A DNA stretch of 3,879 bases. Source: a virus. Its lineage: Duplodnaviria > Heunggongvirae > Uroviricota > Caudoviricetes. Every line of letters starts with the position of its first letter. The stretch's first letter is position 1. Shown here in pieces: positions 1,593 to 3,830 of this stretch. The DNA lies in IMG/VR virus record IMGVR_UViG_2740892235_000014; one strand, written 5' to 3'. Both the position numbers and the translations under genes were made by a program. The notes under the pieces are model-generated. The model searched no databases and had not been told where the DNA came from. It was given only the letters and a program-made list of their open reading frames with translations.

Positions 1593-1781
1593 GTGTTAAG
1601 CACTGATCGGTTTATACGTGAAAAAGAATGCGAAAAGCTAACAGGCCTTAGCCGCTCATGCCGCTACCGCCTGGAAAAGGCCGGACAATTCCCATCACGT
1701 CGTAAACTTGGTGGGCGTTCTGTTGGCTGGTCTTTATCTGAGGTTTTGGCCTGGAAGGATAGCTGCAAGGCAGTTCACTAA
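1593..1781 (+). CDS. alpA: AlpA / Vis-family phage transcriptional regulator / excisionase-like DNA-binding protein (62 aa, GTG start)
   Basis: SD AAGGGGG at 1581-1587, 5 nt before GTG at 1593. The protein (EKLTGLSRSCRYRLEKAGQFPSRRKLGGRSVGWSLSEVLAW) matches the AlpA family pattern as I remember it: KTG-x-R-x-T-x-Y, FP, then LG-x-(R/K)-SVGW and a conserved W. Position right after int is typical. Confidence 0.85.
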   Translation: MLSTDRFIREKECEKLTGLSRSCRYRLEKAGQFPSRRKLGGRSVGWSLSEVLAWKDSCKAVH

Positions 1782-2024: not shown

Positions 2025-2228
2025 TCAGGCTGGTGGGCAATTACCTTGCTTGTTGGGGCCGTATTGTGCTGCCATTTTCATCCGTTCAGAACGTGAATAT
2101 TTTTTTAGAAACTCATCAAGGACAAAAGCGCATGGAGCGAATCTTTCTGATTCATGCTCGAGCGCCATATTTTCGTGCTCTCTGTTCGTTTTTTGCGATG
2201 GTGTATTGGTTGATTCTTTATTGGTCAT
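2025..2228 (-). CDS. Hypothetical small protein (67 aa), paralog of the 2685-2912 ORF
   Basis: Minus-strand ORF starting MTNK. It shares the N-terminal MTN and a C-terminal motif FVLDEFLKKY (FALEDFVDKY in the paralog). It is preceded by the conserved 44-bp family A leader. No recognisable domain. Confidence 0.5.
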   Translation of the reverse strand: MTNKESTNTPSQKTNREHENMALEHESERFAPCAFVLDEFLKKYSRSERMKMAAQYGPNKQGNCPPA

Positions 2229-2285: not shown

Positions 2286-2390
2286 TTATTCTTTGGGTTC
2301 AATACCGCGTTGCTGTAATTCTTTTCGGATTATTCGTTTTATCCAAGCAGCTAAAGAGTCATCACCGTCTTGTTGTTGTGCTTTTTCCAT
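2286..2390 (-). CDS. Possible small ORF (34 aa, MEKAQQQDGDDSLAAWIKRIIRKELQQRGIEPKE)
   Basis: Found by manual translation of the minus strand; it is below the ORF-track size cutoff. Charged, helical-looking composition, weak SD (GGGAAAAG), and its stop abuts the family A copy 1 region. Could be spurious. Confidence 0.25.
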   Translation of the reverse strand: MEKAQQQDGDDSLAAWIKRIIRKELQQRGIEPKE

Positions 2391-2458
2391 CTTTTCCCGT
2401 AAGTCAGGATCTAAACGGAACTGGAAAGGAGGATTACCACGCCTTTCATTTTTGTGTG

Positions 2459-2486
2459 TTGACACGTCAATTACACTCCATATAAT
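2459..2486 (+). promoter_or_regulatory. Consensus sigma70 promoter P1 (TTGACA -16- TATAAT), plus strand, antisense to the minus-strand cluster
   Basis: -35 TTGACA at 2459-2464, 16-nt spacer, -10 TATAAT at 2481-2486; both hexamers match consensus exactly. Confidence 0.55.
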
Positions 2487-2492
2487 GTGTTT

Positions 2493-2508
2493 ATGTGTAT
2501 ATACACAT
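2493..2508. promoter_or_regulatory. Perfect 16-bp palindrome ATGTGTATATACACAT at the predicted transcription start of P1 (operator-like)
   Basis: Read directly; the reverse complement is identical. It sits 7 nt downstream of the -10 hexamer. Confidence 0.5.
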
Positions 2509-2530: not shown

Positions 2531-2645
2531 CAACGCCCCGCAGTGATGGGAACACATACGGGGCGTCTAACCAAACCATTAATTGAGGAACGATTATGGC
2601 TATAAAAGAGCATAGCTTACTCTTTATACACACACAAACGCCCCG
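2531..2645 (+). repeat. Family B module, copy 1: leader hairpin + TCTAACCAA + SD + ATG + about 16 codons (MAIKEHSLLFIHTQTP), homologous to 3279-3390
   Basis: Hairpin ACGCCCCG / CGGGGCGT (2533-2540 / 2559-2566), SD GAGGAA at 2585-2590, ATG at 2596, then TACACACACAAACG. It aligns block-for-block with copy 2. The downstream 240-codon reading frame looks like antisense junk (S/C/R-rich) running across the minus-strand genes. Confidence 0.6.
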
Positions 2646-2684: not shown

Positions 2685-2912
2685 TCATCCTGGCGGTCGG
2701 TTTTTGCCGGATTTAAGCCGCCGTGGGTATTTATCGACAAAATCTTCAAGGGCAAATTTTTCTGGTGGCACTAAGCGCGGCGCTGGTGGTGGTATTTTTG
2801 TTCTGGTTAGTTCTTCCTCAAGTCTGGCGCAGGCTTCTGACTGCCTTTGCCGGATGATTTCATCATCTTGCGTTTGCGTGTCTTGTATTGGTGATAGTGT
2901 GTTGTTGGTCAT
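2685..2912 (-). CDS. Hypothetical small protein (75 aa), paralog of the 2025-2228 ORF; probably co-transcribed with the upstream RHH gene
   Basis: Minus-strand ORF starting MTNN, with an acidic, proline-rich middle and the C-terminal motif FALEDFVDKY. Preceded by family A copy 2. No recognisable domain. Confidence 0.55.
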   Translation of the reverse strand: MTNNTLSPIQDTQTQDDEIIRQRQSEACARLEEELTRTKIPPPAPRLVPPEKFALEDFVDKYPRRLKSGKNRPPG

Positions 2913-2969: not shown

Positions 2970-3149
2970 TTATTCTGATTCTTTGGCCTTGCGGCGCTGG
3001 CGGCGTTTGATCTCGCCTTCAAGTGCCGAAACGATAAATTGCCCTGTACTTTCGCCATCTTCCTTTAAATTTTCTACAGCATCAGCTATTGCGTGTGGTA
3101 CTCGAGCCTCAAGCTTTTTGGATTTTGCATTAACTGCTTTTGTTGCCAT
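2970..3149 (-). CDS. Arc-type ribbon-helix-helix DNA-binding protein (59 aa), putative transcriptional repressor
   Basis: Internal start ATG at 3149 with SD GAGGAA 8 nt upstream. The protein MATKAVNAKSKKLEARVPHAIADAVENLKEDGESTGQFIVSALEGEIKRRQRRKAKESE aligns with phage P22 Arc as I remember it: RWP-REVLDLVRKVAEENG-RSVNSEIYQRV versus RVP-HAIADAVENLKEDG-ESTGQFIVSAL. The 106-aa extension in the ORF track has no SD and a hydrophobic junk-like N-terminus. Confidence 0.7.
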   Translation of the reverse strand: MATKAVNAKSKKLEARVPHAIADAVENLKEDGESTGQFIVSALEGEIKRRQRRKAKESE

Positions 3150-3170
3150 ATCTGATTTCCTCGTTATTAG

Positions 3171-3251
3171 GTGGCTGACAGTATACACACAAGAAAACGG
3201 AAAAACACTATTGACGTGGCTGACACCCGTTACTAATATAGTGGCTGACAC
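3171..3251. promoter_or_regulatory. Three direct repeats of GTGGCTGACA (3171-3180, 3216-3225, 3241-3250): candidate operator array
   Basis: Exact 10-mer three times in the divergent intergenic region. Copy 2 lies in the spacer of promoter P2 and copy 3 at its predicted transcription start. RHH proteins typically bind direct or inverted repeat arrays. Confidence 0.5.
3211..3239 (+). promoter_or_regulatory. Sigma70 promoter P2 (TTGACG -17- TAATAT) for the plus-strand operon
   Basis: -35 TTGACG at 3211-3216, 17-nt spacer, -10 TAATAT at 3234-3239. It has the same position relative to the family B hairpin and ATG as P1 has in copy 1. Confidence 0.55.
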
Positions 3252-3278
3252 CTTTATCAAGGTAATCGATGAAAAGAC

Positions 3279-3390
3279 AAAGCCCCGCAAGTGTCGTTAC
3301 CACTCGCAGGGCTTCTAACCAACAACGTAAACTAGGAGCCGTTATGGTTGCTGTAAATCATATACCACACCTTGTACACACACAAACGGC
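3279..3390 (+). repeat. Family B module, copy 2: leader hairpin + TCTAACCAA + SD + ATG + first codons of the Icd-like ORF
   Basis: Imperfect 14-bp stem AAGCCCCGCAAGTG / CACTCGCAGGGCTT (3280-3293 / 3301-3314, 12/14 paired) with a 7-nt loop, SD AGGAG at 3334-3338, ATG at 3344, then TACACACACAAACG. Confidence 0.6.
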
Positions 3391-3541
3391 CTTTGTGTGG
3401 CGTTTTCTGGCACTGAGTGCCGGAGAATCTCAAATCATCCACGTAACCGCCTGGACGGAACGCGAAGCGCGTAACCGTTGCCCGTCCGGTTGTGTTGCTG
3501 TATTTGCCGCCCGTATTCGTCAGGAGGTGCGCCATGATTAA
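3344..3541 (+). CDS. Small protein (65 aa), tentatively Icd-like (host cell division inhibitor-like / P4 Ash-region type)
   Basis: SD AGGAG 5 nt before ATG at 3344. The protein MVAVNHIPHLVHTQTAFVWRFLALSAGESQIIHVTAWTEREARNRCPSGCVAVFAARIRQEVRHD fits my recollection of Icd-like proteins (VW-F-A, TE-EAR, V-FA-R); this is unverified. The alternative upstream start at 3269 (90 aa) has a weaker SD. Confidence 0.5.
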   Translation: MVAVNHIPHLVHTQTAFVWRFLALSAGESQIIHVTAWTEREARNRCPSGCVAVFAARIRQEVRHD

Positions 3542-3746
3542 TCTGTCACTTACTGACCTTAACCGCATTCAGTTTCGTGAGAAATTCACAGGGCAGCTAC
3601 TGGTCAATGTGGATAAAGGTCGCGTGGTGTGTAATTACCACTTACCAGATGAAGCAATTGTCGCCACAAGGGAATCATTACAGGAAATCACAAAACGTGC
3701 CGGAATGATTAACACGAATATTCAGGGGATGCTTTATGCACAATAA
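3534..3746 (+). CDS. Hypothetical protein (70 aa), translationally coupled to the upstream ORF
   Basis: Strong SD AGGAGG at 3523-3528, 5 nt before ATG at 3534. The start overlaps the upstream stop as ATGATTAA. The protein MINLSLTDLNRIQFREKFTGQLLVNVDKGRVV... has a balanced composition; no family recognised. The GTG at 3492 used by the ORF track lacks an SD. Confidence 0.6.
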   Translation: MINLSLTDLNRIQFREKFTGQLLVNVDKGRVVCNYHLPDEAIVATRESLQEITKRAGMINTNIQGMLYAQ

Positions 3747-3820: not shown

Positions 3821-3830
3821 NNNNNNNNNN
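3821..3830. other. Assembly gap (10 N)
   Basis: Ten consecutive n characters. Contiguity and reading frame of 3831-3879 relative to the upstream sequence cannot be assumed. Confidence 1.

Follow-up and report, generated by a model that had tools for sequence, protein, structure and literature searches.

The three copies of a short repeat upstream of a 59-aa RHH gene in an Escherichia coli satellite element are likely to be operators of the RHH protein itself, through which it would silence a long rightward operon and regulate its own synthesis. This reading comes from comparing sequences across related loci, and the element concerned is a capsid-forming PICI (cf-PICI). The DNA that we analysed, a stretch of 3,879 nt referred to here as the window, matches E. 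coli O43 RM10042 with 100% identity and forms the left end of the element.

In the annotation, the element occupies ~15.5 kb between two tqsA fragments and encodes int, alpA, a RepA-type helicase, SSB, PerC, capsid, prohead protease, portal, head closure, connector, HNH, TerS and TerL; no tail or lysis genes are annotated in it. cf-PICIs are described as elements of 10-18 kb that have integrase, regulation and replication modules, encode their own capsid, protease, portal, connector, HNH, TerS and TerL proteins, and lack tail and lysis genes (10.1101/2025.02.11.637232). Judged by annotation only, the element matches this description and is a cf-PICI inserted in tqsA. Its leftward part consists of two units, each made up of a small ORF and a 59-aa gene, and its long rightward operon begins with an Icd-like gene and continues through small ORFs, DUF4222, the RepA-type helicase, SSB and PerC to the capsid and packaging genes. 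In later cf-PICI papers, what lies downstream of alpA is described as variable, with no known function. Ten masked bases (N) lie at 3821-3830 of the window, inside an ORF that starts at 3736. The features discussed below are collected in Table 1.

Table 1. Positions of the operator region, its promoters and the neighbouring genes in the window
Feature	Position	Strand	Basis or remark
alpA	1593-1781	+	transcribed towards the leftward RHH units and in the same direction as the Icd-like operon
orf67 of the second module	2025-2228	-	
other 59-aa RHH gene, second module	2286-2465	-	phrog_228, 'Arc-like repressor'
P1	2459-2486	+	perfect consensus, TTGACA-16-TATAAT; overlaps the RHH start codon of the second module
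16-bp perfect palindrome	2493-2508		ATGTGTATATACACAT; over the P1 start
leader hairpin, second module	2534-2565		followed by TCTAACCA
orf75	2685-2912	-	75-aa ORF downstream of the RHH gene
RHH gene (59 aa, YlcI/YnfO family)	2970-3149	-	NCBIfam NF041551
Shine-Dalgarno of the RHH gene	3158-3162	-	GAGGA; sequence
O1 operator site (copy 1), putative	3171-3181		GTGGCTGACAG; exact copy
-10-like hexamer, RHH transcript	3180-3185	-	TATACT; conservation across loci
P2, sigma-70 promoter	3211-3239	+	promoter scan; predicted
O2 operator site (copy 2), putative	3216-3226		GTGGCTGACAC
O3 operator site (copy 3), putative	3241-3251		GTGGCTGACAC
leader hairpin, P2 transcript	3281-3321	+	AGCCCCGCAAGTG / CACTCGCAGGGCT, followed by TCTAACCA
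Icd-like gene, first of the regulated rightward operon	3344-3541	+	NF033153, 64.8 bits

An initial annotation of this DNA, made from its letters alone, had reported three exact copies of a 10-mer, and an exact search bore this out: GTGGCTGACA occurs exactly three times in the window, always on the plus strand, at 3171-3180, 3216-3225 and 3241-3250. Copies 2 and 3 are identical out to 12 nt (GTGGCTGACACC), and copy 1 reads GTGGCTGACAGT. Non-overlapping exact 10-mer triples within 100 bp appeared in 0 of 20,000 simulations (order-1 Markov model of the window), and the analytic expectation, a rough figure, is ~2e-5. We found no additional copy of GTGGCTGACA, allowing up to one mismatch, in the 24.6 kb around the window, a region that contains the whole element.

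At each copy, the 10-mer is the core of a near-palindrome of 11 bp, GTGGC-T-GACAC, with 8 of 10 positions symmetric; across the family the site takes the form (G)TG-N5-CA(C). Perfectly palindromic 11-mers are formed by several other cores (GTGTC-C-GACAC, GTGTT-C-AACAC and GTGGA-G-TCCAC), and the orientation of O3 is inverted relative to that of O2 in several site classes. The site is thus a dyad of a kind that suits a symmetric dimer, and the direct-repeat character of the array is incidental. The copies had been called direct repeats, and on the plus strand they are exactly that, but the working unit is the near-palindrome.

The sites occupy distinct positions relative to two divergent promoters. 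P2 consists of a -35 hexamer, TTGACG (3211-3216), a 17-nt spacer and a -10 hexamer, TAATAT (3234-3239). O2 begins at the last base of the -35 hexamer and takes up the first 10 nt of the spacer, and O3 begins 2 nt 3' of the -10 hexamer, so the predicted P2 start point is covered by O3. O1, at a distance of 21 nt from the start codon of the RHH gene, shares one base with the leftward -10 (the last of that hexamer) and also covers the predicted leftward start point. Thus, the original placement of the repeats in the spacer and at the +1 of P2 fits copies 2 and 3, but copy 1 lies outside P2 and adjoins the leftward TATACT. The leftward promoter has a -10 only, with no good -35 and a T-rich upstream region, and because of this poor -35 a simple promoter scan missed it. 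Its -10 region, CAGTATAC, is conserved in at least 80% of 48 related loci regardless of site class, and is invariant between E. coli and Xenorhabdus. At P2, the TTGA of the -35 is likewise conserved in at least 80% of the 48 loci, with TAnnnT 17-18 nt downstream in 47 of them.

The protein encoded next to these sites scores 60.6 bits against YlcI_YnfO_N (NF041551; cutoff 30, E 1.1e-16), and its PGAP name agrees. A monomer model shows the strand-helix-helix fold of the RHH superfamily (~45 residues), with a beta-strand at approximately residues 10-17 (SKKLEARV), helix A at 19-28, a turn formed by G32-E33-S34 and helix B at 35-58. The G-x-S/T/N turn is well kept among 46 homologues, in which E33 is invariant and G32 and S34 are each conserved in at least 90%. 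Cognate repeated sites and a base-reading strand, also characteristic of the superfamily, are present on comparative evidence only. The best structural match is the antitoxin CopA_SO (PDB 6iya), and omega and CopG are also among the matches. At its C-terminus, the protein has only a short basic tail, without a toxin-binding extension.

Searches at the level of sequence returned little beyond the family match. There was no Pfam match at E <= 1; searches of PDB sequences with the protein and with a 46-sequence profile yielded nothing useful; BLASTP gave no alignment to the Arc sequence, and none between the two RHH proteins of the window; and tblastn against 50,697 phage genomes produced no match. 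The PHROG match is to phrog_949, labelled 'unknown function', not to the Arc-like phrog_228. The protein is therefore a member of the RHH fold and not a sequence relative of Arc; the label 'Arc-like', given to it earlier, is sound for the fold but finds no counterpart in Pfam, PHROG or BLASTP comparisons. A search of the literature on YlcI, YnfO and DUF3950, and on RHH repressors in PICIs, found nothing relevant.

For comparison, we collected 67 loci encoding RHH homologues by a one-genome-per-species search and used 48 non-redundant loci to analyse the layout. Their hosts include Escherichia, Xenorhabdus, Pectobacterium, Yersinia, Serratia, Kosakonia, Proteus, Dickeya, Klebsiella and other genera. 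Most of the 67 loci adjoin alpA and int, and many then have Icd-like and RepA genes, the Icd-like gene being detectable in only 22 of the 67. The three-site layout is kept in ~70 related Enterobacterales loci. Across the 48 loci, the distances of the TG-N5-CA sites from the start codon of the RHH gene are ~22, 67 and 89-102 nt. About 19 nt from that codon comes (G)GTG-N5-CAGTATAC, and the TG-N5-CA site at offset 22 is always followed by GTATAC; beyond it come an A-rich stretch, TTGA(C/A/G) directly followed by GTG-N5-CAC, then TAnnnT and the third site. O1 and O2 are spaced 45 +/- 1 nt apart in all 23 distinct combinations. The spacing of O2 and O3 is 22, 23, 24, 25 or 35 nt, with which preservation of helical phase is only partly consistent, and we make no claim for it. 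A systematic weakness of O1, comparable to that of lambda OR3, has too faint a signal to be claimed: among the 23 combinations, O1 and O2 are unlike in 10, and O2 and O3 in 6. The site array is missing from four loci that keep the RHH gene (L009, L016, L028 and L031).

Conservation is concentrated in the sites and promoters. When E. coli and Xenorhabdus members of the window's own class (KKLEA) are compared, the columns of the sites and core promoters are invariant (45 of 45), against 13 of 37 spacer columns; in the same comparison, helix A of the protein differs and AlpA is only ~45% identical.

The N5 core of the site varies between loci, switches in all copies of an array together, and follows residues 11-15 of the RHH protein (Table 2). 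One exception is a QKTSV strand (L020), which has the TGTCCGACA site in common with KRFDV. Site class is best predicted by columns 12, 13 and 14 of the protein, for which the adjusted Rand index is 0.59, 0.52 and 0.66, respectively. Of these, 12 and 14 face the DNA in the usual RHH register, as does position 16, an invariant arginine (R16).

Table 2. Beta-strand variants of the RHH protein and the sites found with them
Strand	Site	N5 core
KKLEA, RKLEA (window class)	TGGCTGACA	GCTGA
KRFDV	TGTCCGACA or TGTCGGACA	TCCGA or TCGGA
QT[ILV]AA	TGTTCAACA	TTCAA
QMTT[VI]	TGTATTTCA	TATTT (QMTTV)
QQLNA	TGCGATTCA	CGATT
LQVSV	TGGTGTTCA	GTGTT
QS[IV]T[AV]	TGTAAGACA	TAAGA
QK[ILV]QA	TGGAnTCCA	GAnTC
QKMSA	TGGGTGCCA	GGTGC
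QKIHA	TGGAACACA	
KQVNV	TGCTATTCA	
QALKA	TGGGCCACA	GGCCA

The association also holds when the search starts from the DNA. In operator-first searches, we looked for two copies of one 10-mer, correctly spaced, and then for an RHH N-terminus at the expected distance. This recovered 20 of 20 KKLEA, 21 of 21 QQLNA, 3 of 3 KR[FI]DV and 6 of 6 QT[ILV]AA strands, that is, only the predicted class in 50 of 50 cases. Other matches to operator pairs, including those from a metagenome scan, were mostly unrelated sequences without promoter context.

Because gene and sites lie only ~100 bp apart, the co-variation of strand and site is confounded by linkage, and a partial Mantel test does not remove this linkage, since the beta-strand and the rest of the protein both correlate significantly with site distance. 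A natural swap in E. coli PKF11 bears on the question. Compared with the window, this strain has an AlpA identical at 60 of 62 residues, an Icd-like protein identical at 55 of 65 (85%, with residues 12-61 fully identical) and a leader almost as in the window, yet its RHH strand is QALKA and its sites are TGGGCCACA. Conversely, E. coli JP538 has the window's sites but another Icd-like N-terminus. Together, PKF11 and JP538 rule out AlpA and the Icd-like protein as the determinant of specificity, and orf75 is ruled out by its absence from the 67 loci, which leaves the RHH protein. On the column association, the contrast between E. coli and Xenorhabdus, the operator-first searches and the PKF11 swap, we would say that the co-variation of strand and site does exceed what linkage would produce.

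These comparisons are consistent with a simple circuit. RHH dimers on O2, in the P2 spacer, and on O3, at the P2 start, would exclude RNA polymerase, and with P2 blocked the rightward Icd-like, replication and packaging operon would stay silent. Occupation of O1 would block the leftward promoter (-10 TATACT, 3185-3180) and so provide negative autoregulation. The N5 core would be read by beta-strand residues 12-14, and the TG/CA flanks probably by Arg16, which is invariant, together with N7, K9 and S10 of the conserved N-terminal arm. We infer physical binding, with one dimer per site, as well as repression rather than activation and the lifting of repression by a helper phage. Candidates for lifting repression are a helper-phage anti-repressor and proteolysis. 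More speculatively, AlpA-dependent read-through from the alpA promoter across the convergent RHH units might have this effect, an idea suggested by the finding that Pseudomonas AlpA is an antiterminator (PMC9371919). The geometry of alpA would permit such read-through, which would cross the repressor genes in antisense before entering the operon. The initial annotation had predicted that the RHH protein acts from these operators as a repressor of P2 and probably of itself, and comparison supports the prediction: five computational tests agree, namely the RHH fold, the three-site layout, the co-variation of core and strand, the 50 of 50 operator-first recoveries and the PKF11 swap.

Several other readings of the repeats deserve consideration. 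That they are a chance occurrence or a recent, functionless local duplication is favoured only by their short length, and we regard it as vanishingly unlikely: the simulations never reproduced the triple, the sites are invariant between E. coli and Xenorhabdus though the spacers diverge, and the same layout recurs with other cores in more than 40 loci. It is extremely unlikely that the repeats are iterons or centromere-like sites, serving as a replication origin or in partition by an RHH protein of the ParG/omega type. RHH proteins such as omega and ParG do bind arrays of short repeats, and omega is among the structural matches; against this, the element has no ParA-type ATPase, there are only three sites, locked to the -35, -10 and +1 across the family, and no further copies occur elsewhere in the element. 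A type II toxin-antitoxin system, with the RHH protein as antitoxin to orf75 and the repeats as nothing other than its autoregulatory operator, is very unlikely. It would agree with the best structural match being an RHH antitoxin, with an RHH gene followed by a small ORF in the manner of a toxin-antitoxin operon, and with a weak match of the window's other RHH protein to a VapB model. However, orf75 has homologues in 0 of the 67 related loci and matches no Pfam, NCBIfam, PHROG or toxin family, and no conserved downstream toxin gene is found among the 67 loci, many of which have a convergent alpA directly after the RHH gene. The protein also lacks a C-terminal toxin-binding extension, its short basic tail apart, and two of the three sites lie in the conserved divergent promoter. 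In the window, orf75 is probably co-transcribed with the RHH gene, but it does not belong to the conserved module.

Two further readings assign the same sites to a different protein. AlpA/Xis-type proteins often bind direct repeats, and alpA is present in the window, so the repeats could be sites at which AlpA, as an activator or possibly an antiterminator, is loaded at P2. AlpA is the only regulator shown experimentally for Gram-negative PICIs, and their induction is ascribed to it as an activator (PMC6092414). We nevertheless consider this very unlikely, as PKF11 has a nearly identical AlpA with different sites, Xenorhabdus has an AlpA only 42-48% identical with identical sites, and positions in the spacer and over the +1 suit repression, not activation. 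Recognition by a product of the rightward operon, such as the Icd-like protein, has an equally slim chance of being correct. That protein matches phrog_1743 and phrog_6196, both labelled transcriptional repressor, but it is 85% identical between the window and PKF11 while the sites differ, JP538 combines the window's sites with a different Icd-like N-terminus, and the gene is detectable in fewer than a third of the loci that keep the RHH gene. Operators for the 59-aa RHH protein remain the preferred reading.

The region downstream of P2 and the adjoining parts of the window have further features. The leaders that follow the two promoters (3281-3321 and 2534-2573) share a hairpin of the form GCCC(C/G)G..AGTG-loop-CAC..(C/G)GGGC, followed by (T)CTAACCA; compensatory changes affect 5 of 9 pairs of the leader hairpin among 14 loci. 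The Rfam families C4 and isrK (RF01695 and RF01394) gave no match in the window at E <= 1 or in 3235-3420 at E <= 10. Both do match the related locus L071, where they lie downstream of the corresponding hairpin, within a partial ash gene. The right flank of O3 is overlapped by a small 5' hairpin, CCTT..AAGG (3251-3264). The hexamer TGACAC occurs five times on the plus strand of the window and never on the minus strand, its occurrences including O2, O3 and the P1 -35.

A second, upstream module (2025-2640) has the same design and a different specificity. Its layout implies that P1 points antisense into orf75 and the RHH gene at 2970-3149, and an Icd-like frame from 2596 departs from the intact Icd-like sequence after ~15 codons. 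The two modules are linked by a 75-nt repeat (2218-2292 and 2902-2976, 80% identity). Stacked or reassorted modules are seen in other genomes as well: E. coli UC4316 (L071, 625-3250) has three leftward RHH modules in tandem, and after the middle one (QMTTV, with TGTATTTCA sites) comes the same leader as after P1 in the window; an IMG/VR contig (L238) has operator pairs of the QQLNA and KRFDV types 4.5 kb apart; and PKF11 joins the window's P2 leader to another RHH/operator class.

Between int and alpA, intergenic repeats of ~21 nt containing TGACACAATC (1263-1303 and 1513-1533) flank promoter-like alpA sites; these repeats are possible arm sites of the integrase or possible AlpA sites. In four related loci, but not in the window, the equivalent region matches the Rfam int-alpA RNA motif. 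The only Rfam match in the window is BSnc120, a Brucella sRNA (1369-1447; 27.9 bits against a gathering score of 114), which is probably just the terminator-like hairpin AAAGGCATAAAA..TTTTATGCCTTT between int and alpA. Just beyond the stop codon of alpA, at 1807-1785, is a terminator-like hairpin that points leftward, and a GCGGC-N11-GCCGC hairpin (1930-1956) is preceded by an A-run and followed by CTTTCT.

Among 5,426 complete E. coli genomes, 134 have this very operator region, counted at 90% identity or more over 113 nt; all of these copies are chromosomal and none is annotated. The Icd-like part of the locus is far commoner, occurring in 1,080 genomes. The prototype cf-PICI, that of E. coli O157:H7, lacks the module; it has a different gene at that place and no RHH gene, and the RHH protein thus cannot be a universal PICI repressor. 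The module is nonetheless a testable candidate for the missing repressor layer in a sizeable subset of satellites, with other classes across the Enterobacterales.

The mechanism proposed here is classical; what would be new is a probable repressor for Gram-negative PICIs, in at least 13 matched repressor/operator classes. The matched sets of strand variants and 5-bp cores form a panel of probably orthogonal repressor/operator pairs and supply data for an RHH recognition code. We raise with more doubt, as a possibility that we lean somewhat against, that many enterobacterial satellites (cf-PICIs, PICIs and related int-alpA elements) carry a fast-diversifying immunity module, made up of a master repressor of the YlcI/YnfO type and a fixed switch of three operators. 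Its classes, at least 13 of them and orthogonal to one another, would reassort without regard to AlpA or the regulated operon, and one element could have them stacked two or three deep. If this is true, Gram-negative PICIs have a repressor layer beneath the AlpA activator, and the family would offer a readable code from beta-strand to DNA, with residues 12-14 set against the N5 core.

The circuit may be likened to those of other small RHH repressors whose sites overlap promoters, such as P22 Arc and Mnt and the plasmid proteins omega and CopG. P22 Arc binds one 21-bp operator as a tetramer; the array described here instead consists of three distinct dyad sites of 11 bp, spaced 45 and 25 bp apart. 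Moreover, we detect no sequence relationship to the Arc/Mnt (immI) system, and the host element is a satellite, not a phage. In omega of pSM19035 and CopG of pMV158, one RHH dimer binds each short repeat, direct or inverted, and the repeats overlap promoters; the inverted O3 of several classes is reminiscent of this. The heptads of omega are contiguous and number 7-10, in contrast to the three well-separated sites found here at fixed promoter positions, and the target genes also differ. CopA_SO (6iya), the closest structural match, comes from the Shewanella prophage CP4So and is part of a toxin-antitoxin pair, unlike the protein described here, which has no conserved toxin partner. As in the P1 c4-icd-ant system and the P4 CI RNA system, an Icd-like gene leads the regulated operon behind a structured leader, and some relatives, L071 among them, carry C4 and isrK RNAs in the same place; control here, however, appears to be exerted by a protein repressor at the promoter. 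The nearest functional analogy is with Stl/Rpr of the SaPIs, where a divergent repressor next to int keeps the operon for replication and packaging silent (PMC6092414). Stl, however, is a large protein of the helix-turn-helix type and is inactivated by helper-phage proteins, whereas the candidate repressor described here is a small RHH protein.
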